A stretch of 64,000 bases of DNA. Source: Escherichia phage RB43. The stretch lies in the sequence record NC_007023.1; one strand, written 5' to 3'. The notes below the pieces were generated by a model. The model was not told the DNA's origin. It saw nothing but the letters and a program-made list of their open reading frames with translations, and ran no database searches. Below are positions 35,754-61,870 of the stretch, one piece after another (positions within the stretch are counted from its first letter, which is position 1; each line of letters begins with the position of its first letter). A program made the translations under genes and the position numbers.

Positions 35754-36004
35754 GAGTTCATTACGAGACTGAGAGAAACAAGCACATAAGCCTCTTCACC
35801 TACCAGATACATTTGTATATGTACTGGCGCTGTAAACATTTTGTTTATGATTTTATGGAATCGAGTGTTTTCCGATAAACTGCGTTGTCTTGTATAACTT
35901 TTGAAAATGTTATCTTTGACAATGGTCGCCATCGTTTCGATGTGGTTTAGCGATTTCCCAAGTAACGGGTTCAGAAAAACTTCTTTTTTCGGTACATAAG
36001 CCAT
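35726..36004 (-). CDS. hypothetical protein (92 aa)
   Basis: ORF. Confidence 0.45.
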   Translation of the reverse strand: MAYVPKKEVFLNPLLGKSLNHIETMATIVKDNIFKSYTRQRSLSENTRFHKIINKMFTAPVHIQMYLVGEEAYVLVSLSLVMNSWDTSTKTI

Positions 36005-36020
36005 ATTTCAAATTCTCTTT

Positions 36021-36311
36021 TTAGTGCATGAAAGATTTAACGTACTTCAATATTTCTTCACGACATGTGTCAACGCTTGTGTTTTCGGCAATCATAGCAT
36101 GACAAAGTATCTCACCGTCAAGCCAAAACGTCAGCATGTATTGAATATCACGACCTTCTGTTGCTTCCTGATGATACTTGATTTTCGCGAAAGCAGTTTC
36201 GATACTTTCGGTTACTGTCAACATTTCGGAATCACCATCTACAGCAGCCATTTCCCCAGCTTCTTCGCTGAATTCGCTTTCCAGTTCTTCCCAGTATACT
36301 ATCGTTATCAT
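36021..36311 (-). CDS. hypothetical acidic protein (96 aa)
   Basis: ORF. Confidence 0.5.
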   Translation of the reverse strand: MITIVYWEELESEFSEEAGEMAAVDGDSEMLTVTESIETAFAKIKYHQEATEGRDIQYMLTFWLDGEILCHAMIAENTSVDTCREEILKYVKSFMH

Positions 36312-36444
36312 TGATTACCCCAAACATACTTTACATTTGCATAAAGGGCATTCAGCCTCTTTGATGCGTAGACGTTTCGTTGTTGTCTTCTTCTCCGTAT
36401 TGTGATCATATACATGAAGACAACGGAAGCAGATCACCCAACGT

Positions 36445-36912
36445 TTATCCGTCATAACCGCCACCGCACTTAACCTCACCTTCAATGAACAGTTCGCGGT
36501 TGTCTCTCAAAAGATTGTATTTCTTTTCGAGTTCCGGCCCGAATGCGTCAGCGTCTTCATAATAGCTATAATTATAACAACCGCATTCATCATCCCATTC
36601 AGGTTCATCACCGCGTTCGTTGAAGTGTACGACTTTGAGATCGTCAACTCCAGACTCTTTCATTTTATCCCAGATATACCGGATGTCAACGCTATGGTAA
36701 CTGAATGCTTCAAGGGTGATGTTATCACCATCGATTTGAGGGATACCCCATTTAGGACGTTGGTCATCGGTGATGATATCAAGCAAAGATTCTACGTTTT
36801 CGTGTCCGTAAATCTTCGCGACCTCTTCCTCTTTACCAGGACGAACAAGCCCGATCCCGATAATAAAGCTACTGCTTGAACTGTTACTTACAAAACCAGA
36901 ACGGATCTTCAT
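36445..36912 (-). CDS. Acidic protein, paralog A of MKIRSGFVSNSSSSSF family (155 aa)
   Basis: First 16 residues identical to ORF 40362-40844; Glu/Asp/Tyr/Cys-rich remainder. Confidence 0.6.
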   Translation of the reverse strand: MKIRSGFVSNSSSSSFIIGIGLVRPGKEEEVAKIYGHENVESLLDIITDDQRPKWGIPQIDGDNITLEAFSYHSVDIRYIWDKMKESGVDDLKVVHFNERGDEPEWDDECGCYNYSYYEDADAFGPELEKKYNLLRDNRELFIEGEVKCGGGYDG

Positions 36913-37100
36913 CGTCTTGCCTCATATTTCGCGTTCTCCGCGATTTTTTCTTGATAGATGTTATATGACATTACCAGAGGCGCAATCGCCACGATAAGCC
37001 CTATAAAGCACACAGAGAACTCACGTTTATTGAAAGCCAGGAACGCAATTGCGCTCCCGACTACAAACACACCTAATGCCAGTAAGAAGAATAGCGTCAT
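36909..37100 (-). CDS. small membrane protein (63 aa)
   Basis: Two hydrophobic helices. Confidence 0.45.
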   Translation of the reverse strand: MTLFFLLALGVFVVGSAIAFLAFNKREFSVCFIGLIVAIAPLVMSYNIYQEKIAENAKYEARR

Positions 37101-37714
37101 TTCGGCAACGTGTCCATTTTGCGTGATTTTTCCAACAGGGTGTTGATTACCGTATCCATCGCCTGTTCTGTATCACCATCATGATAGATGATCGCGGTTT
37201 GATGCAAACCTTTCACCAGACGATTAATAATGTACGCCATTTCGGTCGGTAACAGTTTACCCGTTTCGTTGAATTTTTCAAACAGTTTGAACAGTTCTTC
37301 ATTATTCCCTTTCTTACTGAAATTGAAATCGTGCATACCAGACAGAAGACCATCCAGATACAGAACTGTTTTGTTATCAGAGCGGAGGTGTCCACCGATT
37401 TTGTAGTAGTTGCTGAAAACGTATGGCGCTTCACGAACATCATTGATTTCGAAACCAGCATCATCGATATTGCCTACGTGGGAGAAGAAATCCGCATCGT
37501 TATCGAACAGGTTGATCGCGCCTTTCTTGTACGGGAAGCCAGCCAGGTTAATGACTCCCTTTTCATACGCATCATCGTTATCAACGACAACGTATTCAGG
37601 AAGCATAGGGGCATACGGTTTGTTTTTGTCGTGGTTTTCGCGATACGCTAAAGGTTCAGCCAGATAGAGGATATCGCCTTGTTTGACTTCATCCCAAAAG
37701 ATATTACGTGACAT
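37097..37714 (-). CDS. hypothetical protein (about 205 aa)
   Basis: ATG(rc) 37714 with GAGGAA RBS just after hairpin following vWA gene. Confidence 0.5.
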   Translation of the reverse strand: MSRNIFWDEVKQGDILYLAEPLAYRENHDKNKPYAPMLPEYVVVDNDDAYEKGVINLAGFPYKKGAINLFDNDADFFSHVGNIDDAGFEINDVREAPYVFSNYYKIGGHLRSDNKTVLYLDGLLSGMHDFNFSKKGNNEELFKLFEKFNETGKLLPTEMAYIINRLVKGLHQTAIIYHDGDTEQAMDTVINTLLEKSRKMDTLPK

Positions 37715-37754
37715 ATTAAATTCCTCAATATGCCCCCTTTCGGGGGCTATTTCA

Positions 37755-39974
37755 TTACAGTTTAACTTCTTTTTCTTCCAGAACGATTTCGCAATCGAAT
37801 GTTGCACCTTCCCAGAATTTATGCGGGATAATGTCAGTCGCTTTAACCGATACTTTGGTTTCTTCAAAATCCAGATCCGCAAACCAGGCGTGGCCTACAA
37901 CGATACCATACATTACACGGCTCAGGCGCTTGTTCAGTGCGCGTACTTCGTTGATGGTTGCCTTTGTTTCTTTATCAAGGTACTCGATTACCTTATCCTT
38001 GTCAAGCGCTGCGAGTTCAGCTTTAACAGAATCGTAAGCCCACAGGATGATCAGGTCGCCGTTGTTCAGTTTCTTCTTACCTTCGGCACGTTTCGCAACG
38101 GTTGCCGCTACAGCAGGAAGGGAGGAAACACCCTTGATTTTCAGATTCAGTTCTTTCGACATATAAACATCAGTCGAATCGGTACTGGTTACTTTCGGGG
38201 AGAATCCATAATCACGAATACCCTGTTCAGATAACCATTCACCAGCGGCTTCACCGTATTTCTGTTTCAGACCTTCGGCATTACGTAAACCGATCGCGTC
38301 GTCACGGAAGAACTTCATCACCTTCTGGCGACCTTTCAGGATTTCCAGACGGATAGAGTCGTTTACATACTCTTTACCGGAGATCCCGCGAGTCATCGCA
38401 CGGTTAACCAGGGGCAGACTGGTAAAGTCAACCAGTACCGACATGCGGTCTTCACCGATTTTTGCCAGCGGCTTGATAGTCAAACCAGAAGCGCGAAGGT
38501 TTTTCAGTGTCGGAATATCAGTTTCCAGCGGCAGAACCTTAACGTTTACGATACCGTCTTTAACGATGGTAAAGTTACGTACCTGCTTAGTTTCGATCTG
38601 TTCAGGCAGTTTCAGTTCTTTCTGTTTGCTTTCTGGGATAGTTACGTAACCCATCAGATCCGTGTTAATGGAAATGTTAGGACGTGAACTGTTACCGACC
38701 AGGTGCTTAACCGATACTTTGGTTGTAGTCTGGGTAAATTTCGGTGTCCAGATTTCATGCGTTACCATTTGCGCCGCAAGTGCTTTGCGTTCTTCCGGTG
38801 TTTTCGCGTTTGCAATCTGTTCAGACAGTTGATCCAGAGTATCATCTTCTTTCTGTACCGTCTGACGGCCTGTGCGGTTGTACGCCCAGTGTTCAGAGGA
38901 CAGGTCGATCACAGTGTCGGTTTCTGCCAGCAGTTCGAGAGCGTCAACCAGAGTGAACGCGTTTTCGTCTGGAACCATGTTGTAATCAACACCATCGAGC
39001 AGACGTTTAGCCGGATCAACTACCGCTTCCGCGATCAGGTCTTTCGCGTTGGAATAGTCCTGTTTGGTAAAGCAGTTATCATACGCCTTAATCAGACGAA
39101 CATCACCCAGCTTTTTCAGCACTTTCCATGCAAGGTCAGGGTTCATTGTGTGTAGCGCATGATACAGCACGACATACAGAACCTGTTCACCTTCCAGAGT
39201 AGCCGGATCGAAACCGTCGATGTCGTTGATTGCGTTATCACCCAGCGCCCAGATGTTTTTGATGTGCTCAGGAACCAGAACAACACCGTTTGCAGCGTTC
39301 AGGACATACACACGCCCTTCGTCCAGGTAGATAGCATGGGTTGCGTCAGCAACTTTAACTTCGACGCGAGCGGAGGTTTGCGCGGTGATGATTTCAGCAA
39401 ATGCTGGCTCGTATGCGTCGAAACCTTCAACGAATTTATGCAATGCGTTGGTTGCTTCTGCCATTTTTTCCAGCAGAGGACGGTTAACATAATAGCCGTA
39501 TTCCAGGAATGCAATGCTGTTAAACGTCAGCGGGAGAACCGCACACGCTTTCAGGATGTCATCGGTACGCCAGCAGTTATCATAACCATCAGTCAGGAAG
39601 ATCAGGCTGTTCAGGTTGCCGTTTTCGGATTGCAGGTCGGTTGCGATTTCAGCAGCCAGATTCAGTGGTTCAACAAAACCAGTACAACCAGTAGGTTTCA
39701 GATAACGGTCGATCGCGGTACAGATATTGGTCAGATCCGATACGTTGCTAACCTTCTCACCACGGAACACAGTACCGTAATCGCCTTTGCTGGAGAAGTA
39801 CAGGATCGAAACGGTGTCATCCTGTTTAACCAGACTCGCCAGGTTTGCTTTCAGGTGCTTACGGATCTTCGGCAGTTCGTTATACATTGAACCGGAAACG
39901 TCGCAAACGAAAACGTGGTTGGTCGGAGTCGGCTTAGATACTGCGTTTTTGAATTCGATATTTGTAATTGACAT
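37755..39974 (-). CDS. Large vWA (MIDAS-containing) domain protein, 739 aa
   Basis: N-terminal vWA with DxSxS MIDAS motif (HVFVCDVSGSMYNELPKIRKHL...ILYFSS...FLTDGYDN); about 530-aa C-terminal region unrecognised. Confidence 0.7.
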   Translation of the reverse strand: MSITNIEFKNAVSKPTPTNHVFVCDVSGSMYNELPKIRKHLKANLASLVKQDDTVSILYFSSKGDYGTVFRGEKVSNVSDLTNICTAIDRYLKPTGCTGFVEPLNLAAEIATDLQSENGNLNSLIFLTDGYDNCWRTDDILKACAVLPLTFNSIAFLEYGYYVNRPLLEKMAEATNALHKFVEGFDAYEPAFAEIITAQTSARVEVKVADATHAIYLDEGRVYVLNAANGVVLVPEHIKNIWALGDNAINDIDGFDPATLEGEQVLYVVLYHALHTMNPDLAWKVLKKLGDVRLIKAYDNCFTKQDYSNAKDLIAEAVVDPAKRLLDGVDYNMVPDENAFTLVDALELLAETDTVIDLSSEHWAYNRTGRQTVQKEDDTLDQLSEQIANAKTPEERKALAAQMVTHEIWTPKFTQTTTKVSVKHLVGNSSRPNISINTDLMGYVTIPESKQKELKLPEQIETKQVRNFTIVKDGIVNVKVLPLETDIPTLKNLRASGLTIKPLAKIGEDRMSVLVDFTSLPLVNRAMTRGISGKEYVNDSIRLEILKGRQKVMKFFRDDAIGLRNAEGLKQKYGEAAGEWLSEQGIRDYGFSPKVTSTDSTDVYMSKELNLKIKGVSSLPAVAATVAKRAEGKKKLNNGDLIILWAYDSVKAELAALDKDKVIEYLDKETKATINEVRALNKRLSRVMYGIVVGHAWFADLDFEETKVSVKATDIIPHKFWEGATFDCEIVLEEKEVKL

Positions 39975-39984
39975 TTAGTTTTTC

Positions 39985-40221
39985 TCAGTATTTGGATTTG
40001 GTTGTTTTGTGTACATTTAAAATGCTTTGGATTTTTTCGGAAATCGTTTGCTGGTCTGGTTCACATCCCAACTTACCGCCAATCGCCTTGTAAAAATCTT
40101 CAACAGAGCTTACGTTGAAATCCGGCATATGGAAACCTAACGAGTACATATGCGGATTGTGGAATTCGTAAACATCCACATTGTATTCGTTAAGATCGAA
40201 ACGTTCAAGATATTTCTTCAA
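39985..40221 (-). CDS. hypothetical protein (78 aa)
   Basis: ORF immediately upstream of vWA gene. Confidence 0.5.
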   Translation of the reverse strand: MKKYLERFDLNEYNVDVYEFHNPHMYSLGFHMPDFNVSSVEDFYKAIGGKLGCEPDQQTISEKIQSILNVHKTTKSKY

Positions 40222-40361
40222 AGAAAATAAATCGAACGGTAATGGGAGGTGCTGTTCAATCGTTACAGGTTCCCCCAGCTTGTGCGCTTTCAGGGGTTGC
40301 CCCTTTCGCGTATGTCAGTTCTGTTTTCATCAGTGGTGACTCTTTTGATGTATATTCAAGG

Positions 40362-40844
40362 TTACGGAAAGATGTTTCCATGTTCCAGTTGGGTTCCAAT
40401 CGGGCCGCACTCGTCAGAGTACGTAAACTCGTAGATAAACACGCCGTTTTGATTCCCGTACTTCGTGTTGTATTCTTCATACAGCCACATCTTGATCAGA
40501 GCGTCTTTCTCTTCGGTTTCTAAATCGTACCAATCCCGACCATCATATGCAAGCGCAATTTGCGGATTTGAACGATAACGGGTTTCGGCGCTGTCTTCGG
40601 TTTCCCAATCATAACGCTTATCATCATAATACGATTCAAAGCTATTACCCATGTGACCGCCTAAGTCACGGTGAACGTGTTGAACAACTTCTTCGGATGT
40701 CAGCGGAGGATTATAATAACCGCAATTGGGAGAACAATCACCCATCATTTCGCGAAGGTTGTCGATATCAATCGGATCTTTCGGGAACCGGACGATAAAA
40801 CTACTTGATGAACTATTGCTCACAAAACCAGAACGAATTTTCAT
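40362..40844 (-). CDS. Acidic protein, paralog B of MKIRSGFVSNSSSSSF family (160 aa)
   Basis: Identical 16-aa N-terminus to ORF 36445-36912; acidic, Tyr/Cys-rich. Confidence 0.6.
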   Translation of the reverse strand: MKIRSGFVSNSSSSSFIVRFPKDPIDIDNLREMMGDCSPNCGYYNPPLTSEEVVQHVHRDLGGHMGNSFESYYDDKRYDWETEDSAETRYRSNPQIALAYDGRDWYDLETEEKDALIKMWLYEEYNTKYGNQNGVFIYEFTYSDECGPIGTQLEHGNIFP

Positions 40845-41086
40845 TTTAACGCCTCGAATTTGATTTCTTTCAGTGATTGTGTGTGATTATAACAAACCAC
40901 TCCGCGATGTGTTTTCTTTCCGGTAAATCCGTCGAATATGGTGACATAATAATGATAGCAACAATCATCAAGAGGATTGTTTCTGATATAGTCTAACACA
41001 ACGTCCAACGATACGGTAGAGCATACGCAATCAGATTCATTGTCACGACCATCATAGAAATCTTTTTCAATACTATAAATTTTCAC
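40841..41086 (-). CDS. hypothetical Cys-rich protein (81 aa)
   Basis: ORF. Confidence 0.45.
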   Translation of the reverse strand: MKIYSIEKDFYDGRDNESDCVCSTVSLDVVLDYIRNNPLDDCCYHYYVTIFDGFTGKKTHRGVVCYNHTQSLKEIKFEALK

Positions 41087-41356
41087 GATACTTGCCTCAT
41101 GTTAGACATAATTTCTTCAAAAGTCACGGGGAATTCTTTGGGTTCGCAATCGTCATCCCATTCTTCTCGATATCCGTTAATTTTGCTAACCGCGATCATC
41201 TTATCGTTTTTCCCATACAGTCACTTCAATACGATCACCAAGATAGGGAAAGCTGGGGTGCTTGTTGATTACATCAACACACGTTTGAAGAGATTCAGAT
41301 ACTTGAATTACTTCACCAAAATCATAATCGCCGTGACGCGACAGAACATAAATCAT
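41083..41356 (-). CDS. hypothetical protein, apparently split at an A5 run (sense) near 41215 (about 89 aa if fused)
   Basis: ATG(rc) 41356; two consecutive protein-like frames joined by removing one A from GAAAAACG. Confidence 0.35.
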
Positions 41357-41887: not shown

Positions 41888-42358
41888 TCAGTTTCGTTTC
41901 GATAAAGTTAAGGTATCACTGTTCTTACGAAGATGCAAACACTTTTTTGAAGAATTTGTTTCCGGTCTTTCTTTGTATGGGCGCATGGTCAACCGCTTAC
42001 CGTCCAATACTGTTGGTTTTCCATCCAGTTCAATCAGGATAAAGTTGCCTTTGCGATACTTCAACACGCCCTGGCTTGCCGACCATTCATCGTTATCCCA
42101 GTGGTTGTAATGCCATTCAACAACGGTATCGATTGGTATTTCTGGTTGATTTCTCATATTTGCTTTCCTTCGTTCTGATGCTTCTTTCAATTGTCGTATT
42201 TGTGGTATCAACTGTTGTGGTGGAACAGTATCTTCCCGTTTCAATGCCTTTCGAACTTGATCAACAAACCATTCGTATTTCGGACGGCGGTTAAGTTCTT
42301 CCCTTAGTCGGGCATTCTCTTGTTCGGCAATGCTTGCGCGTTTTCTGTAATCGGTCAT
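41888..42358 (-). CDS. hypothetical protein with N-terminal coiled coil (156 aa)
   Basis: ORF overlapping methyltransferase stop by 4 nt (likely co-translated). Confidence 0.5.
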   Translation of the reverse strand: MTDYRKRASIAEQENARLREELNRRPKYEWFVDQVRKALKREDTVPPQQLIPQIRQLKEASERRKANMRNQPEIPIDTVVEWHYNHWDNDEWSASQGVLKYRKGNFILIELDGKPTVLDGKRLTMRPYKERPETNSSKKCLHLRKNSDTLTLSKRN

Positions 42359-43263
42359 AGAACTTTCCTTATCTGTTTGGCTATTGCCTCGATAACTGGC
42401 ACGGAAACGGAGTTACCCGCTTGCTTGTATGCTTGTTTTTTACTCGATGGAATAATAAACGAATCTGGGAAGCCCTGCAAGCGAAAACATTCACGCGGGG
42501 TTAATCGTCGTGGGTTCTTCCCATCCTGTAACACCAGACACTGAACGCCGTCCTTGTAGTATTGCGCTGTGATGGTTCCTGTGTGCGTAGAATCGGCTGT
42601 GACGGCCTGATAACCAAACCCCTTACCGTTTGCCTTATTTCGTTCCTTACGCTCTCTAAAGCCTTTCCACGCGTTATCTGATAGGGTGTACGAATCATCA
42701 ACATCTTCGAGGATATCACCTACGCGCGTAGGGGTGCGCGGGGGAACCGGAAACGAAAAGAATACATCATCCAGGAAGCAGACAATAAACACACGTTCAC
42801 GTCGCTGGGGTAATCCGAAATCTTTCGTATTCAGTCGTTGATAGAATACGTTGTATCCTTCGGCCTCCAGAAGCCCGTAAATCGTTTTAAACGTCTTTCC
42901 CTTGTCATGGGTTAGCAATTCAGGCACATTCTCAAAGAACAGCACACGGGGCTTTTTAGCGCGTATAATGCGGAGGATTTCAAAGAACACCGTACCGCGA
43001 ACATCATCGAAGCCCAGTTTTAATCCGGCTTTACTGAATGCCTGACACGGGAACCCAGCCAACAGGATATCGTGATCAGGTACTTTGTTTTCATCAATGG
43101 CGAACAAGTCACCTTCGAGATTATCACCGCCCCAGTTAGCGGCGTATGTTTGCTGTGCGAATTTGTCGATCTCAGCAGTAAGCACACATTCAACACCGTC
43201 AAATGCGCGATCAAAGCCCATACGAACGCCACCAACGCCAGCGCATAAATCAATCAGTTTCAT
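42355..43263 (-). CDS. DNA (cytosine-5)-methyltransferase (Dcm-like)
   Basis: Canonical m5C MTase motifs: I DLCAGVGG, IV GFPCQAFS, VI ENV, VIII QRRERVF, X GNSVSVPV. Confidence 0.9.
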   Translation of the reverse strand: MKLIDLCAGVGGVRMGFDRAFDGVECVLTAEIDKFAQQTYAANWGGDNLEGDLFAIDENKVPDHDILLAGFPCQAFSKAGLKLGFDDVRGTVFFEILRIIRAKKPRVLFFENVPELLTHDKGKTFKTIYGLLEAEGYNVFYQRLNTKDFGLPQRRERVFIVCFLDDVFFSFPVPPRTPTRVGDILEDVDDSYTLSDNAWKGFRERKERNKANGKGFGYQAVTADSTHTGTITAQYYKDGVQCLVLQDGKNPRRLTPRECFRLQGFPDSFIIPSSKKQAYKQAGNSVSVPVIEAIAKQIRKVL

Positions 43264-44283: not shown

Positions 44284-44559
44284 GTAGAACTTTCCATATG
44301 TGTTGAAATTGATACTTTCGTGGTTACGTTCATTGATCGTGATTTCATAATCGTAATCTTCATTAGTAACCGCGCGGTCGTGTTTGATAACGTTCACGTC
44401 ATAAACGCGGGATAACGCATGATACAAAGAATCACGGATCTTTTCAGCAATCTTCGCGGGTTCGCTATACATATTGAGCATATCAGCAACAATACCTTCT
44501 ACTCGCTGAATATCTCGCTGTTCGATGTATCCTACGTACAGGCTTACGTCTTTAATCAT
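44281..44559 (-). CDS. hypothetical protein (92 aa)
   Basis: ORF overlapping nucleotidyltransferase gene stop. Confidence 0.5.
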   Translation of the reverse strand: MIKDVSLYVGYIEQRDIQRVEGIVADMLNMYSEPAKIAEKIRDSLYHALSRVYDVNVIKHDRAVTNEDYDYEITINERNHESINFNTYGKFY

Positions 44560-45554
44560 TTGTAATACCCCAGAACATGATCTTTGTATACCTGTTCGAT
44601 AAAGTCATTCCAGAATTCCCGATCGACTTCTTTCGGATAGGTAGAGATTGCAGCAAGGCGTTCAACTTCGCCCATCACTTCCTCCAGTTTTTCCTGTACT
44701 TCGGCAAACGGGACATTACCAGCTTTAACCGATTTCAACAGGTCACTCTCAGGAAGAGGGTACACGATATCGCCGTGTTTGTAAATCTGTACTAACTGCA
44801 TACCACCGCGCAATGCGTGACTTAATGCTTTCCAATCGATCCCGTTGTTGGCTTCTGCTTGTCGTGCGCGTTCGCCATATTCATCCCAGAGCTTGTACAC
44901 GGATTTCTTCATTTCCGCTACGGTGATCGTGAACTGGAATTTACGACCCAATACTTCATAGAAATTCTGCATACCGCCTTTTTCGCTATAATGCAAAATA
45001 GAACGACAGAATTCATTGGTCGGTAGTTGGTCTTTGATGTCGCCAACTTTGATGTTTTCTATTGCATCACCCAGATTGGAAGGCATACGCACAACGCGAG
45101 TATTTGGGGTGTCTTGTAACACGTCATACACTTCACGCAGTGCAGCCAGGCGAGAACCTTTCACACCATATTTCGCGGCTTGCTTACGGACATAACCGAA
45201 CAGGCCAGTTAACTCCGTAGTGTAGAAACGCCAACGGTTAGCGCGGATATACTGCCAGATTTCAGAGTTAGCGATCAGCTTGCTATCATCAGCATGAAGC
45301 ATATCGAGCGCTACGGTATCACCATCACACGCAAGGCTGATGAACTTAGGCAGACTATACAACTGACGGTCTACGTCATCAACGGTGTTTTTAGAGTTCT
45401 TATCGCCCGTGCTCGTGTCGATAGTCTTCGGGGCTTTACCTAGCAAGATATCGCGTGGATGCGGGAGGAAGATCCCTTTATAATCTTTGTCGCTTGTCGG
45501 GGTGTTCAGCCCGTACAGGTGAGAACCGAACACAGTTTCCATTACAATTTTCAC
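44556..45554 (-). CDS. Pol-beta superfamily nucleotidyltransferase-like protein (332 aa)
   Basis: N-terminal minimal NTase motif VFGSHLYGLNTPTSDKDYKGIF (GS...hDhD) with later acidic residues; helical C-terminal domain. Confidence 0.55.
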   Translation of the reverse strand: MKIVMETVFGSHLYGLNTPTSDKDYKGIFLPHPRDILLGKAPKTIDTSTGDKNSKNTVDDVDRQLYSLPKFISLACDGDTVALDMLHADDSKLIANSEIWQYIRANRWRFYTTELTGLFGYVRKQAAKYGVKGSRLAALREVYDVLQDTPNTRVVRMPSNLGDAIENIKVGDIKDQLPTNEFCRSILHYSEKGGMQNFYEVLGRKFQFTITVAEMKKSVYKLWDEYGERARQAEANNGIDWKALSHALRGGMQLVQIYKHGDIVYPLPESDLLKSVKAGNVPFAEVQEKLEEVMGEVERLAAISTYPKEVDREFWNDFIEQVYKDHVLGYYK

Positions 45555-47333: not shown

Positions 47334-48392
47334 TTAGATACCTGTAAATGCTACGACAATCTGATAGTGGTCATCGAAGAATTCCCCTTGTCGTTGTACG
47401 ACCTCATGTAAGGGCATCCAGAACGCGTCTAACGCATCGTCAGAACCGCCCATAATACGTGGTAAACTTCCATCATTGTTAGGTTCTAACTTGATGTATT
47501 GCGCCACAGTCGGTTTTGAGAAGTGTACAGAACGCTTCGGATGATCGAACAGCATCGAATTGCGGATTGAACCACGAATAACCTTTTCAGGAACCTTGAT
47601 CCGAACCTCTTCGAGCAGTTCGCGGATCGCACAATCCAGGAACGTTTCATTTGCGTTTTTGTGTCCACCTGGCAGGGCTAGTGCGCCTTTTCCTGGTGCA
47701 AACTTACGACGAATTACCAGCAGGTGATTGTTGCACACAACCACGTTATCACCCGTGCAGCAGTTTAGCGCTTCTGGGTATGGGTAATTTTTGAATTTCT
47801 CCAATTCACTTTCCCATTTTTCGAATTCGTAGTACAGTCGCCAAAATGTATCCGTCATCATCCATGAATTGATATAACTCACAGTAGACGGAGGAACATA
47901 ACGAGATAGTTTCTTGTCCCATCCATTCTTATGCAAAAAGGATGGTTGGTCGTAAATCGGTCGCAGATAAATCTTCCCATCAACCTTAACCGGATCTACC
48001 GGAACATGAGTCCATCCAAACGCTTTCAGCCAGTATGAATCAGCATCTTTTTCGTAACCATAGATCGCGATGTTATCGCCTTTGGTTTCGTTGATTGCTG
48101 TACGAACAGAAGTTTTCCATTTTTCTTCGTTGTAAAGATAATCAGGAATATGAGCAAACTTAACACGACAAACATCTTCGTATTTGTATTCAGTCATCAG
48201 CCACGAAAAGATCATTCTTTCGCGTTCGTTCGCGGTCAGAGGATTTAAAACGTTGGGGTATGCGTAGGCAGAACCCAGGAGGATGTAAACGGTCTCCGAC
48301 TCTTCCAGTGCTTTACGCACCATCGCCGCATGACCATTATGGAAAGGTTGGAATCTGCCAATCACGACAGCTTTATCAAATTTGTGTTTCAT
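47334..48392 (-). CDS. Bifunctional NMN adenylyltransferase / Nudix hydrolase (NadM-Nudix type)
   Basis: N-terminal HxGH motif GRFQPFHNGH; C-terminal Nudix box GGHKNANETFLDCAIRELLEEV; GGAG RBS before ATG(rc) 48392. Confidence 0.85.
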   Translation of the reverse strand: MKHKFDKAVVIGRFQPFHNGHAAMVRKALEESETVYILLGSAYAYPNVLNPLTANERERMIFSWLMTEYKYEDVCRVKFAHIPDYLYNEEKWKTSVRTAINETKGDNIAIYGYEKDADSYWLKAFGWTHVPVDPVKVDGKIYLRPIYDQPSFLHKNGWDKKLSRYVPPSTVSYINSWMMTDTFWRLYYEFEKWESELEKFKNYPYPEALNCCTGDNVVVCNNHLLVIRRKFAPGKGALALPGGHKNANETFLDCAIRELLEEVRIKVPEKVIRGSIRNSMLFDHPKRSVHFSKPTVAQYIKLEPNNDGSLPRIMGGSDDALDAFWMPLHEVVQRQGEFFDDHYQIVVAFTGI

Positions 48393-48588
48393 AACGTGCT
48401 CCACGTTTAAAGGGTAATCATAAAACAGACGCAATAATCAATACACCAAGCAAACCGCCAATAAAGCCGAAGAATGACGAAATGAAGATAGACAATATAA
48501 TCTGTTTTATGTTCATTGTAGTATTCTCGTTTTAAGAGTCAAGCCCCCAGAACGGGGGCTTTAAAATCTTATTTACGAGAATCGAAAA

Positions 48589-49494
48589 TCACTTTGCCAG
48601 CGTAATCAGAACCCATGACAGTTTGAGGTACACCACCTTGTAGCGGGTAGAGTAGTTCATCTGTACATCCAGTTCTTTCCAGCGGATCATTTCTGGTGTA
48701 ATGGTGCGCTGCAACACGGCGTTCGCTTCTGCTTCTTTACGGGCCGCATACAGTTTAGCATCAGCATCACGTTCGTTTGCGAGTGCTTCATTTTCACGCG
48801 CCTGACGATTTGCTTCTGCCTGTTTTACCTGTTGTTGAGAAGTTTGCTCAACCTTCGCCAGTTCAGCACGAGCGGCGTTAACCTGTTCTTCACGGATCTT
48901 CGTGTTAGTTACCTGTTCCATGATAACATCTGGCAGGGTAATATCCTGCAAGAATACCTGTTTCACGGTGTAACCATACGGTCGCGCATACTCTTCAACT
49001 TCCTGCTGAATCGCAGTTTGCAACTGGTTCTGGATCTTTGCGTCGAACAGATCCTGTGCTTTCGGAACTGATTTACCGAATTCGCGAACAGTGGACAGCA
49101 ATTTTTCGGTTACGTATTTATCCAGAGCTTGTTCCTGGTCGCCAGCGTTGATACGGTTAATCGGTGCTTTGTTACCGTCGAATTGCAACATCACGGTCAT
49201 GTCAACAGTCGATTTAAATTTATCCTGGGACGGAACCTGCAACTTGTCGAATTTCTTCGCGATATCTTTCGTACTGAAAGTATCGAAGTCAGCCAGTGGG
49301 TTTACGATATGGAAACCAGGCATGACAGGTTTCGGAGAAACTTTACCCATAAAGGTCTGGGTTTTGACCGTACCGTCCTGTACGATGGTAAAGGAGTTCG
49401 GAACCAGCCACAGTGCAGCAACTACGCCCAGAGCGATCAGAGTGGTTTTCTTCGGGTTGTCACGGATAGTATTAATATTCATAGTATGTCTCAT
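48589..49494 (-). CDS. SPFH/band-7 (prohibitin-like) membrane protein
   Basis: N-terminal TM helix then SPFH-like core and long Ala/Glu/Gln-rich coiled coil. Confidence 0.6.
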   Translation of the reverse strand: MRHTMNINTIRDNPKKTTLIALGVVAALWLVPNSFTIVQDGTVKTQTFMGKVSPKPVMPGFHIVNPLADFDTFSTKDIAKKFDKLQVPSQDKFKSTVDMTVMLQFDGNKAPINRINAGDQEQALDKYVTEKLLSTVREFGKSVPKAQDLFDAKIQNQLQTAIQQEVEEYARPYGYTVKQVFLQDITLPDVIMEQVTNTKIREEQVNAARAELAKVEQTSQQQVKQAEANRQARENEALANERDADAKLYAARKEAEANAVLQRTITPEMIRWKELDVQMNYSTRYKVVYLKLSWVLITLAK

Positions 49495-55560: not shown

Positions 55561-56910
55561 TTAAAAGTTATCTTCGACGAATGCAGCGAGTCGCCCACGA
55601 TATACGGTATCCAGGATCACATGACTTGAATGACCGTACTCTTTAAGTTTTTCAACCGCATACACAAAACCGTTGTTTACGGCAGTGTTGCGCGGGTTGT
55701 CAATCTGTTTAATGTTCCCGCATAGTATCAGAAGTGTGTTCTCACCGCAACGGGAAATGATGGATTTAATTTCGTGATTGCTCAAGTTTTGACATTCATC
55801 AACAATCAGAACGGAACCTTTACCCGGATCAGGATGCCCGATTGAGCGCCCACGGAAGTAATACAGGCTGGGGAACTGTACAACGCCTTTCTCTAACAGC
55901 CCTTCGACGTACTTATCAACTTCCGGTTGATCTTTAAACAGAATGTTCAGGCTTGTAATACATGGTTCAATAGACGGTCGTAATTTTTCTCCCAGTGTAC
56001 CAGGTAAGAACCCGATTTCGCCCGACAGTGGGCTATCCGATTTTACATACATCACATTAGCAAAATGACCAGCATTTACCAGGTGCATAGCACCAGCAAC
56101 CGCCAGCATTGTTTTACCGGAACCAGCCGCGCCCATAATGGTCACTGCATCAATGTTTTTATCCAGAATGGAATCAACGAAAGACGCTTGCAACGCATCG
56201 CGAGGTTGAATTGTTTTCATCAGCTTGCGTTTCATCAGGTGTTCGTGTTTCAACGGCAACACTTCAAGCTGAAACTCTCCAGCATCCACCACACGCCCGA
56301 CAACCTCACCATAGGACAGGATGTATTGGTTAGGGTAGAAATCTACCTTGTAGTCGGCAAACGACGCATAGCTAATCAACGCAATATCGCCATTGTACCC
56401 AACAACATCAACGATGTTCCAGAAGTCGGTCAGTTCAATATAACCGGAATACAGAACATCACTATCTTTCAGTGTGTCATCGCCCGTGTACTGTTCAACA
56501 GGACAACCCTTAGACATTGCGATCAACAACATATTGATATCGCGGGTTACTAAGGTCGCTTTCTCCTGCAAACAGGTAGCGATAATGCGAGCATCTTGCT
56601 TATCAAGCGGGAACTCTTCACCACCGACATAATCGACGATACGCAGAGTAACGCTATCGGGTAAAGCTGGGTTTGTTTGGCCCAACGAAACCCCAGTTTG
56701 GGTAATTGCTTCATACTTCTGTCCCAGGACAATTTTAGACAGAAGTCGGATCACTAAACGTGCTTCGCGGGAAGTGTGTTCCTTTGATTTCAGGTGATCC
56801 AGTTCTTCCATTGTTGCAGCGGTAATGATGATCTCAGTACCAGGGGCAACATAAGAATAGATTGAATATGGGTTCGAGATTAAAACGTTGGTATCTAGAA
56901 CATATTTCAT
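55561..56910 (-). CDS. PIN-PhoH fusion ATPase (PhoH2/YlaK-like)
   Basis: N-terminal PIN domain (MKYVLDTNVLISNP...) and C-terminal PhoH P-loop GAAGSGKT with DE box LIVDECQN; AGGAAAA RBS. Confidence 0.85.
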   Translation of the reverse strand: MKYVLDTNVLISNPYSIYSYVAPGTEIIITAATMEELDHLKSKEHTSREARLVIRLLSKIVLGQKYEAITQTGVSLGQTNPALPDSVTLRIVDYVGGEEFPLDKQDARIIATCLQEKATLVTRDINMLLIAMSKGCPVEQYTGDDTLKDSDVLYSGYIELTDFWNIVDVVGYNGDIALISYASFADYKVDFYPNQYILSYGEVVGRVVDAGEFQLEVLPLKHEHLMKRKLMKTIQPRDALQASFVDSILDKNIDAVTIMGAAGSGKTMLAVAGAMHLVNAGHFANVMYVKSDSPLSGEIGFLPGTLGEKLRPSIEPCITSLNILFKDQPEVDKYVEGLLEKGVVQFPSLYYFRGRSIGHPDPGKGSVLIVDECQNLSNHEIKSIISRCGENTLLILCGNIKQIDNPRNTAVNNGFVYAVEKLKEYGHSSHVILDTVYRGRLAAFVEDNF

Positions 56911-57029
56911 AGAAGTTTTCCTGTTAATTGCGAGGTACGCGGATTCGCACCCCGCGTACTGCAATTACATACCCAAACGGATAATGTGAATGTATGGGAA
57001 AGGATGCAGGTTACTATTTCTCATGCAGA

Positions 57030-60432: not shown

Positions 60433-60715
60433 ATTTGAGAGTATTCATATAACCGATGATGTATTCAACAACAGCATCGCGTTCTTCTTCACATTCATAT
60501 CCACCCCACGTTACCGACTGATTATGTGCTAAATGAAACGTAATCGCAGGTTTCCATGTTTTGTTAATACAAGGAATTTTAGCGTCGGTCTGAATCCATA
60601 AAACGTGCTCTACGTTAACAGGATAGTTAACACATTCCACCTCTGCGTTACTATTGTATACAAAATGGTCTGCGTATAAACGTTTATACGATTTAATTTC
60701 TGACACAATAATCAT
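60422..60715 (-). CDS. hypothetical protein (97 aa)
   Basis: ORF. Confidence 0.45.
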   Translation of the reverse strand: MIIVSEIKSYKRLYADHFVYNSNAEVECVNYPVNVEHVLWIQTDAKIPCINKTWKPAITFHLAHNQSVTWGGYECEEERDAVVEYIIGYMNTLKYGG

Positions 60716-60835
60716 TTTAACTCCACTGCATAAACATCGGTTTCAGGGGCTTTGTGTACGCGCATATCTTTACCACATACCGCATAAGCCGGACAGTTGC
60801 GACAACCGTTATGATCCGTGTTGCCTGTCAGTTCT

Positions 60836-61870
60836 TTACGGAACTGTTTTGTTCGCGGGTGTTCCCAGATATCTTTGATAAAAATCATCTGCTTCCAGAA
60901 CGTTCAAACCTTCGCCCCAGCCACCTTCAACCCAACGTTCGGTAAACGAGCAAGGGAAGAATTCGCCTTTTTCGTTGATGTAAGAGCTAAACATCGTCGC
61001 TTCGCAATCTTCCGCATACTGCTTGTATTGTTCGAAGTTCGGGTGTCCCTCCATCGCTTCAACGAAAGCGGGTGCTGAACAACTATCGAATCCAAATCCT
61101 ACACCAGAATCGAGGCAATATTCAACAAGTTTTTTGTATTGTTCGCGGGTGACGGTATCCCAGTTCTTACCGCGTCCCTTTTGTTTCAGACCCAGGAACA
61201 CGATCGCATTGACTTGTTTCAGGCGTGGATCGTTACGCACGGCATCAACAACGGTAAACGCATCATCATAGGTCTTTGAGCTAACCATGAAATGTAGGTT
61301 GATTTGCTGTTGTCCTGCTTCTGCCAGGTTCGCTACGGAATCGAAAGCAACATCGAAGCCAGCATGTTTATACACCGATACCGCAACAGCCCCAGCAACC
61401 GCCGCTAAACGCGCTGCAACGTCTTTTGATACATCAGCAATGGTAAGGTTCGGCACAATGCCTTTAGAACGCGCATAGGCCATCATATCAAACATATCAG
61501 GGTTTGTTTGTCCCTGTGCATCAGCACCGAGTGCGCATTGGGTTAACCAGGGCATTTTATCAATGATGGATTTGAAAGAAGCGAGATCCATATTGTAGCC
61601 GTTCGGGTTATTGGACTTGTAACAGAACCCACACAGCTTACCAGCAGGACCGTTGCATTTGGTAGTGACCTCAATATCGAGAATCTCAGGGAATGGGGCA
61701 TAAGTCGGATCGTTGTCAAAGGTTGTACCCCAACGAGCAAACTGACCAGTTTTAACGTTGAAATCGTAATTGTACCATTTGGATCTAGCGTGGCGCATAT
61801 CTCCAGCCTGGTAGATAAACAACGTAGGCGCTTTCATAACAGTATGTGCATTATTCATAATATTTCTCAA
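60836..61870 (-). CDS. Cys-rich candidate Fe-S / radical-SAM-like enzyme (344 aa)
   Basis: Cx8CxxC cluster in IEVTTKCNGPAGKLCGFCY plus C-terminal Cys cluster (GFDSCSAP...DCEATMF...FFPCSF); assignment tentative. Confidence 0.4.
   Translation of the reverse strand: MRNIMNNAHTVMKAPTLFIYQAGDMRHARSKWYNYDFNVKTGQFARWGTTFDNDPTYAPFPEILDIEVTTKCNGPAGKLCGFCYKSNNPNGYNMDLASFKSIIDKMPWLTQCALGADAQGQTNPDMFDMMAYARSKGIVPNLTIADVSKDVAARLAAVAGAVAVSVYKHAGFDVAFDSVANLAEAGQQQINLHFMVSSKTYDDAFTVVDAVRNDPRLKQVNAIVFLGLKQKGRGKNWDTVTREQYKKLVEYCLDSGVGFGFDSCSAPAFVEAMEGHPNFEQYKQYAEDCEATMFSSYINEKGEFFPCSFTERWVEGGWGEGLNVLEADDFYQRYLGTPANKTVP

Follow-up and report, generated by a model that had tools for sequence, protein, structure and literature searches.

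Introduction

Pairs of a maturase and its substrate, in which the maturase is a radical S-adenosylmethionine (SAM) enzyme of the SPASM type, are already known as a kind of system. The closest described examples are SuiB/StrA, SkfB/SkfA, PqqE/PqqA and MftC/MftA, together with those ribosomally synthesized and post-translationally modified peptides (RiPPs) for which one enzyme serves many precursors. Here we compare these systems with a locus of Escherichia phage RB43, a Pseudotevenvirus. The DNA analysed, called the window below, is a stretch of 64,000 nucleotides from sequence record NC_007023.1. Four of its genes are in question: two encode small acidic proteins, A and B, which begin with nearly the same residues (the tag); a third encodes a radical SAM/SPASM-type enzyme; and a fourth, lying between the genes for A and B, encodes a 739-residue protein with a von Willebrand A (vWA) domain and a metal ion-dependent adhesion site (MIDAS). 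The early-type, minus-strand region of RB43 that holds A, B and the vWA protein contains two unrelated things side by side. We show that the tag family is genetically coupled to one family of radical SAM/SPASM enzymes, and that the vWA family is independent of both. The tag and the enzyme probably make up a phage protein-modification system with many substrates, from which the vWA protein is separate.

The tag system resembles the RiPP maturase systems in that the enzyme profile matches SuiB, SkfB and PqqE, and in that the enzyme gene adjoins genes with a constant N-terminal segment and a variable rest. It differs from them in several respects. The tagged partners are 80-280 residues long, mostly folded and acidic, and are not short peptides; the invariant part is the extreme N-terminus; the neighbourhood has no conserved gene for a RiPP recognition element (RRE), protease or transporter; the great majority of instances of the system are found in phages; and no NCBIfam maturase model reaches its cutoff against the enzyme family. 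The classical marks of a RiPP precursor, i.e., a short peptide, a cleavable leader, and genes for an RRE, a protease and export, are absent from the tagged proteins. A candidate likeness, by analogy, is to the anaerobic sulfatase-maturating enzymes (anSME/AtsB), whose targets are Ser or Cys residues of sulfatases: these are radical SAM enzymes of the SPASM type, and the serine that they modify belongs to a conserved motif near the N-terminus of a whole protein. The differences here are that the tag lacks the sulfatase motif (C/S)xPxR, that anSME is not among the profile matches at E<=0.01, and that the bodies of the tagged proteins are not sulfatases.

The internal proteins of phage T4 offer a further comparison, being small, hypervariable phage proteins with a constant N-terminal leader and several genes per genome, and the shared N-terminus of A and B had at first been likened to them as a possible propeptide or capsid-targeting sequence. 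That analogy is not supported. The tag, MKIRSGFVSNSSSSSF, contains no Glu and so has no (L/I)xE prohead-protease site, and protein B does have an LRE at residues 30-32, but its B-type relatives do not conserve an LxE there. The tagged genes are linked to a radical SAM gene rather than to head genes, and their range extends past the T4-like phages to non-T4 phages and Firmicutes.

Results

Proteins A and B and their shared N-terminus

The features on which the argument turns are as follows, with window coordinates.

36445..36912, minus strand: tagged protein A, 155 residues, isoelectric point (pI) 4.45, with an A-type body ending in ...CGGGYDG and the tag MKIRSGFVSNSSSSSF
36862..36912, minus strand: part of the gene for A that encodes the tag, 17 residues
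40330..40844, minus strand: tagged protein B, true length 170 residues (RB43-GVA coding sequence CCL97586.1), with a B-type body ending in ...EHGNIFRNLEYTSKSHH
40794..40844, minus strand: part of the gene for B that encodes the tag, 17 residues
60712..61858, minus strand: radical SAM/SPASM-type enzyme, 381 residues in RB43-GVA (CCL97631.1)

Region 36000-41200 of the window and the RB43-GVA record HE981739 share 99.9% identity, and in that record all genes of the region are labelled 'protein of unknown function'. The open reading frames (ORFs) listed by the initial annotation are present on the minus strand at 36445-36912 (155 residues), 37755-39974 (739 residues) and 40362-40844. The last of these had been taken as a full gene for a protein of about 155-160 residues, and here comparison with RB43-GVA requires a correction, the true protein B having 170 residues and its gene running from 40330 to 40844; the B homologues all match this length. 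Set against the re-sequenced RB43-GVA, the window contains surplus single bases at 40293, 40343, 40368 and 60880, which probably arose as sequencing errors in the original RB43 record and which shift the frame of at least three genes. Because of the extra bases at 40343 and 40368, B reads in the window as an ORF of 160 residues (40362-40844); the gene downstream of it encodes 114 residues (39985-40330), not the 78 of the ORF that the window reads; and because of the extra A at 60880, the enzyme gene is split into 60836-61870 and 60712-60888.

Proteins A and B are identical at 17 of their first 18 residues. When an N-terminal profile was run against the six-frame translation of the window, only A and B scored (E about 1e-23, with E=7e-24 for A), and the next best value was 0.8. 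The N-terminus is invariant among 38 homologues of A, and in the homologues of both proteins it stays constant down to about 30% identity while the remainder drifts. The DNA encoding the two tags differs at many synonymous sites, which argues that the identity of the tags has been selected at the protein level and does not reflect recent gene conversion. Beyond about residue 18, no similarity between the bodies was found by BLAST, hhalign or Foldseek, and an hhalign alignment of family A with family B was confined to the tag region; the two proteins, first described as paralogous, are thus related by their tags and not by their bodies. The same description had them acidic and rich in both tyrosine and cysteine. 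They are acidic (pI 4.45 for A and 4.5-4.7 for B) and Tyr-rich (9 Tyr in A and 13-14 in B), and they have only three Cys each.

The AlphaFold2 (AF2) model of B has an overall predicted local distance difference test score (pLDDT) of 87.8. Residues 1-10 have a pLDDT of 55 in this otherwise confident model, which suggests that the tag is accessible, and residues 13-20 form a strand in a three-stranded sheet. A fold search of PDB and BFVD with B gave no relative except its own orthologue. The B-type members conserve D144, E154, H155 and a C-terminal SHH. Protein A has a partial match to phrog_132, residues 64-147 aligning with profile positions 48-123 (E 3.3e-10), and its gene lies among early-type genes. 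The label 'head-tail adaptor', which A carries via phrog_132, has been spread by automated annotation; it is not supported by the gene context or by the other results given here.

The tag family

The tag has the pattern MK-x-R-x-GFVSNSS(S/T)(S/T)SF. A 40-residue N-terminal profile was searched against 1.84 billion representatives with a cut-off of E<=1e-3, and the tag was found to head at least 21,141 clusters with unrelated bodies, so that the idea of a constant N-terminal signal or interaction motif on divergent proteins, first raised for A and B, is borne out on a large scale. Nearly all of these clusters begin at residue 1 and are 140-280 residues long; the length deciles of tagged proteins are 100-186 residues, and the full range adds a few shorter and longer ORFs. 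Removal of the first 20 residues from 141 unique viral tagged proteins, whose median pI is 4.8, left 57 groups distinct by BLAST, 43 of them singletons. A-type and B-type bodies are a minority, as 120 of 143 tagged proteins belong to neither. Among 255 unique N-termini from enzyme-anchored loci, R4, F7, S11 and S12 are present in 100%, and N10 in 254. In sum, the tag family is very large and almost exclusively viral, and consists of small, acidic, otherwise unrelated bodies defined by the tag only.

In IMG/VR, a degenerate DNA version of the tag pattern gave more than 120 stretches among the matches listed, and these were typically same-strand tandem arrays of 2-7 genes on large phage contigs. 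The pattern occurred 58 times in 100,044 species genomes, mostly on contigs of metagenome-assembled genomes (MAGs) and in a few instances in Firmicutes isolates. For 116 members of the family, Pfam gave no match, and the only PHROG matches were to phrog_7397, of unknown function; the tagged proteins matched no NCBIfam model either; a PDB sequence search likewise found no relatives of the family. In the literature searched there was nothing relevant on the tag motif, on phage SPASM enzymes, or on virion proteomics of the RB43 clade.

Two further observations concern the distribution of the tag. Five database proteins (P0176, P0177, P0179, P0182 and P0200) contain two tag copies each, which suggests that neighbouring genes of an array have been fused by read-through or that a stretch was duplicated in assembly. 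MAG contigs binned to Asgard archaea, Nanoarchaeia, Pacearchaeota and bacteria of the candidate phyla radiation also carry tagged genes, in many cases together with the enzyme (L227, L240, L242, L249, L254, L262, L264, L236-L238 and L256-L257); either these are mis-binned phage contigs or the system occurs in viruses of very distant hosts.

The radical SAM/SPASM enzyme

The gene at 60712-61858 encodes what is, judged from its sequence, a radical SAM/SPASM-type enzyme and the conserved genetic partner of the tagged proteins. The window copy matches a hidden Markov model (HMM) of the enzymes neighbouring tagged genes with E=9.2e-114. Members of the family have three cluster cysteines and a Cys-rich C-terminal domain, and the phage members have an insertion between cysteines 1 and 2, so that the spacing is the canonical Cx3Cx2C in 28 members and Cx5-16Cx2C in the phage members. 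In the RB43 enzyme the cluster motif is C68-x7-C76-x2-C79, in which all three cysteines are invariant in the family, and the C-terminal cysteines are C260, C285, C303 and those of the segment CRNCPAYAVC (Cx2Cx5C). The family profile matches SuiB (4.5e-8), SkfB (1.3e-7), BtrN (9e-6) and PqqE (6e-4) in PDB, and the bacterial members match the Pfam models Radical_SAM (1e-12 to 1e-14) and SPASM (2e-6). When the RB43 enzyme is taken alone, its N-terminal ORF has no Pfam or NCBIfam match, and its C-terminal piece has a weak SPASM match (3e-3). Several related phages annotate the enzyme as 'radical SAM protein'.

Linkage of tagged genes and enzyme

In Veillonella parvula SKV38, a tagged gene and the beginning of a radical SAM/SPASM gene overlap, and homologues of the Veillonella enzyme are found in 80 tag-anchored loci. 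The density of enzyme genes per 100 kb is 4.85 in the viral and 8.06 in the genome loci anchored on the tag, versus 0.12 in a comparison set of 1.67 Mb of vWA-anchored phage DNA. In the tag-anchored loci, 77 of 79 enzyme genes share the strand of the nearest tagged gene, and 62 of the 79 are near enough for direct adjacency, upstream or downstream. Tagged genes and the enzyme are the only families conserved across these loci; no RRE, protease, transporter or leader-removal gene is conserved near the tagged genes.

The linkage is also seen when the enzyme is the starting point. Among 72 enzyme-anchored loci from IMG/VR, all outside the RB43 clade, tagged genes were found in 60 by the strict pattern and in 68 by HMM, and every one of the 219 strict-pattern tagged genes was on the strand of the enzyme, with up to 13 such genes per locus. 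Vibrio phage D479, an independent isolate, has the enzyme and five tagged genes upstream on the same strand. Isolate records number 172 for the enzyme, 172 for protein A and 173 for protein B, all from the same clade, and 502 for the vWA protein.

Rare variants of the tag tend to be common to all copies in a genome: all nine copies in one locus (L287) have G6T, and all four in another (L332) have G6S and S9A. Such clustering of tag variants by genome was matched in none of 5000 shuffles. Shared rare variants fit a single reader enzyme.

A cellular tag-enzyme pair is part of a conserved operon in V. parvula SKV38 (L261, 2984-9265) and in six similar Firmicutes loci. The operon contains genes for an Avs2-like protease-STAND NTPase (PADLOC 1e-17), a 136-residue protein, the tagged protein, the radical SAM/SPASM enzyme and a 302-residue protein, and a metallo-beta-lactamase-like gene that matches the LmuA and Avs1a models adjoins it. 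This operon may be a defence system.

The vWA/MIDAS protein

Previous work had listed the vWA match of RB43ORF119c already in 2006 (PMC1524935). The gene and its neighbours comprise the following.

37755..39974, minus strand: vWA/MIDAS protein, 739 residues (RB43ORF119c; phrog_2426)
39375..39974, minus strand: vWA domain with complete MIDAS, residues 1 to about 200, followed by a small beta-sandwich, residues about 203-245
37755..39239, minus strand: C-terminal part of the vWA protein, about 490 residues, confidently folded and conserved
37097..37717, minus strand: 206-residue gene (phrog_7309), a clade-specific neighbour
39985..40330, minus strand: 114-residue gene (phrog_7677), whose reading frame is broken in the window sequence by an additional base at 40293
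36909..37100, minus strand: predicted membrane protein, 63 residues (phrog_7160)

The initial annotation assigned an N-terminal vWA domain with an intact MIDAS to this protein and saw no ATPase partner, and on these points our results agree with it. Residues 21-176 reach the Pfam gathering scores, though only just, for VWA_3 (28.0/27), VWA_2 (27.7/27) and VWA (25.8/23.8); D25, S27, S29, T98 and D129 of the MIDAS are invariant among 91 homologues; and the protein has the alpha/beta fold of a vWA domain. No AAA+ partner is present among the neighbours in the window or among the conserved neighbours in 80 vWA loci. In this respect the phage protein differs from CobT/CobS, BchD/BchI, MoxR-vWA, RavA-ViaA and NorD/NorQ, with which it shares a MIDAS-containing vWA domain. 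Further, the vWA domain of CobT, BchD and ViaA is C-terminal, whereas that of the phage protein is N-terminal, and neither Pfam nor NCBIfam gives the 739-residue protein a match to CobT or to a chelatase family.

The vWA domain and beta-sandwich together have a fold that resembles ArnB/ITIH/Sec24, and the order of a vWA domain followed by a beta-sandwich is that of ArnB of Sulfolobus, the ITIH heavy chains and the Sec23-Sec24 trunk. The phage protein differs from these in being phage-encoded and, apparently, cytoplasmic, and in having about 490 more residues, for which no relative was detectable in Pfam, NCBIfam or PDB; nor does the phage gene have near it an FHA/zinc-ribbon partner like the ArnA of ArnB. 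Known relatives were thus found for the vWA and beta-sandwich part only, and there is no confident homology of the whole to CobT or to a baseplate protein. When the vWA tail, A, B and the small neighbours were searched against Pfam, NCBIfam, PADLOC and PDB sequences, the vWA domain was the sole match. Taken by itself, the vWA protein adds a new member, one whose tail is unassigned, to a known class of domains.

Full-length members of the vWA family (phrog_2426) are in 502 phage records, from the RB43/Slopekvirus clade, Ackermannviridae, Rhizobium T4-like phages and Bacillus phage AR9, and many jumbo-phage contigs, 300-500 kb in size, carry it too. Across lineages, the 80 loci have no conserved partner of the vWA gene; those that recur beside it without being universal are a Nampt-like gene, an RlaP-like nucleotidyltransferase, an SPFH gene and DUF3268. 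An enzyme homologue is present in just 2 of the 80 loci. Only 8 of the 80, all from the RB43 clade, have tagged genes at a distance of up to 10 kb. The vWA protein is therefore a separate, widely conserved gene of large phages, independent of the tag system, and its place between the tagged genes is probably fortuitous and peculiar to the gene order of the RB43 clade. The 206-residue gene, too, has no conserved place beside the vWA gene in other lineages.

The baseplate cluster precedes the vWA gene, which is surrounded by genes of early type and is encoded on the opposite strand. When virions of a Vi01-like phage were analysed by mass spectrometry, the vWA homologue was represented by a single peptide (PMC10892097), which argues against a structural role. 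The label 'minor tail protein' given to the vWA protein comes from automated annotation; the gene context and the Vi01-like virion data give it no support. The vWA protein would be a cytoplasmic, non-virion protein that acts as a metal-dependent, protein-binding adaptor.

The base composition of the vWA gene region (38001-40000) stands apart, with a G+C content of 0.479 versus about 0.41-0.43 in the flanking segments and a GC skew near zero versus about -0.1 in its neighbours. These differences are compatible with horizontal acquisition of the gene.

Neighbouring genes and sites

A Nampt-like NAPRTase gene lies immediately upstream of the vWA gene in five Ackermannviridae and three jumbo-phage loci, and the window itself encodes, at 47334-48434 (minus strand), a bifunctional cytidylyltransferase-like and NUDIX protein of the NMNAT/Nudix type; NAD-salvage genes therefore recur near the vWA family. 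An RlaP-like nucleotidyltransferase (RNA-repair pathway) is encoded at 44556-45554 (minus strand), and in four jumbo-phage loci, too, such a gene neighbours the vWA gene. Other minus-strand genes of the window encode a C-5 cytosine DNA methyltransferase (42355-43263; Pfam 6e-94), recorded in 2006 as RB43ORF127c (PMC1524935), an SPFH/Band 7 protein (48589-49494), and a PhoH-like protein (55561-56964; PDB 3b85, 6e-20).

A scan of the DNA for promoters and terminators gave a result no better than that for shuffled sequences. A G+C-rich perfect palindrome, GCCCCCTTTCGGGGGC, is present at 37732-37747, between the stop codon of the vWA gene and the 206-residue gene. In the record of phage Miller a 'terminator' is annotated somewhere in the matched region.

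Discussion

If the tag and the enzyme form a modification system, the enzyme would recognise the exposed first half of the tag and modify the tag post-translationally. One maturase would serve many substrates, as in the multi-precursor RiPP systems or as anSME does with sulfatases, and the substrates would be whole folded proteins. Candidate chemistries are oxidation of Ser or a cross-link from Phe to Ser or Asn. It is plausible that the tagged proteins are diversifying early effectors or anti-defence proteins.

Several points weigh against this reading. Gene linkage alone leaves open the direction in which the partners may act on each other. The RB43 enzyme is below the Pfam and NCBIfam thresholds and has the non-canonical Cx7Cx2C spacing. 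In the window it lies about 20 kb from the tagged genes, and because of this distance in the RB43 clade the local case draws on homology and on co-occurrence in one clade. Recent duplication or gene conversion could also account for the concerted variants of the tag. In the model of B, residues 13-20 form a core beta-strand, and part of the tag may be conserved for folding. Finally, a functional contact of the vWA protein with the acidic tagged proteins, specific to RB43, is possible.

The tagged proteins could instead be interchangeable accessory or specificity subunits. The tag would then dock on the enzyme, as RRE/PqqD or activase-like partners do, and the variable body would pick another target, such as a host protein, a nucleic acid or a small molecule. 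We consider this unlikely, while noting that the linkage of tag and enzyme applies to it equally, that the bodies are folded domains and not peptides, and that the lack of a conserved protease or leader-removal gene nearby suits it. Up to 13 bodies per enzyme, with no shared fold, fit better with substrates; the absolute invariance of the Ser, Asn and Phe side chains suggests a chemistry beyond docking; and a resemblance in fold to PqqD or an RRE was looked for and not found.

Another possibility is that the tag is an active-site or ligand-binding element in the beta1 loop of small autonomous proteins, comparable to a P-loop or to HAD motif I, and that the enzyme merely shares their pathway. 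The motif does begin at residue 1 and continue into the first beta-strand, and the B-type proteins have conserved residues (D144, E154, H155 and the C-terminal SHH) that would suit such a role. Because the B-type C-terminal motif is missing from most tagged proteins, 120 of 143 being outside the A- and B-types, because the bodies are mutually unrelated, and because 16 invariant residues far exceed the length of a catalytic loop, we regard this idea as quite improbable. The accessory-subunit and active-site models are possible accounts that fit the data less well than one in which the tagged proteins are substrates.

The initial annotation treated the vWA protein and the two small proteins as one module. 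In that case the N-terminus would be a propeptide, a capsid-targeting sequence as in the T4 internal proteins, or a motif bound by the MIDAS. The three genes keep a constant order in about 170 genomes of the RB43 clade, a constant leader with variable bodies recalls the T4 internal proteins, and the tagged proteins are acidic, MIDAS sites being known to bind carboxylates. Outside the RB43 clade, however, none of 72 vWA loci has a tagged gene within 10 kb, and a vWA locus that is 76% identical (L011) lacks the tagged genes. The Ackermannviridae have kept the vWA protein without an enzyme homologue. The tag offers neither an Asp or Glu to a MIDAS nor an (L/I)xE site to a protease; the tag family is also found in non-T4 phages and on Firmicutes chromosomes; and the vWA homologue is essentially absent from virions (PMC10892097). 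A common module accordingly has little to recommend it, and we give it a low probability. Weakest of all, and in our judgment very nearly negligible, is the notion that conservation is at the nucleic-acid level, as a recombination, homing or translational-control element at the 5' ends of the genes, for although the Ser codons of the tag are mildly biased to AGY (60% vs 36% elsewhere in the genes), every tag Ser position uses both AGY and TCN codons, the tags of A and B differ at synonymous sites, and the DNA upstream of tagged genes has only a generic ribosome-binding site, so that we reject the notion on codon usage.

Returning to the tag and enzyme as a modification system, we found no description in Pfam, NCBIfam, PDB or the literature searched of a phage SPASM system that uses an invariant N-terminal tag to act on many whole proteins, and PHROGs has the family in unannotated form only. 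We propose, tentatively, that the system is widespread in phages and that one radical SAM/SPASM enzyme covalently modifies an invariant Ser/Asn/Phe tag on a fast-diversifying arsenal of small acidic proteins, two in RB43 and up to 13 per locus elsewhere, with a cellular counterpart beside Avs-like STAND genes in Firmicutes; it would be a new post-translational layer of the phage-host arms race.

For annotation of the RB43 region, the consequence is that the labels 'head-tail adaptor' and 'minor tail protein' are unsupported, and that the vWA gene is to be treated as independent. If the proposed modification is real, tens of thousands of 'hypothetical' phage proteins would have in common a tag of 16 residues with a dedicated radical SAM enzyme as its reader, and these proteins would become testable as a class. 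The substrates of SPASM-type maturases would then include, besides peptides and sulfatases, a wide variety of viral proteins, and the Firmicutes version, beside Avs-like genes, hints at a role in defence or counter-defence.

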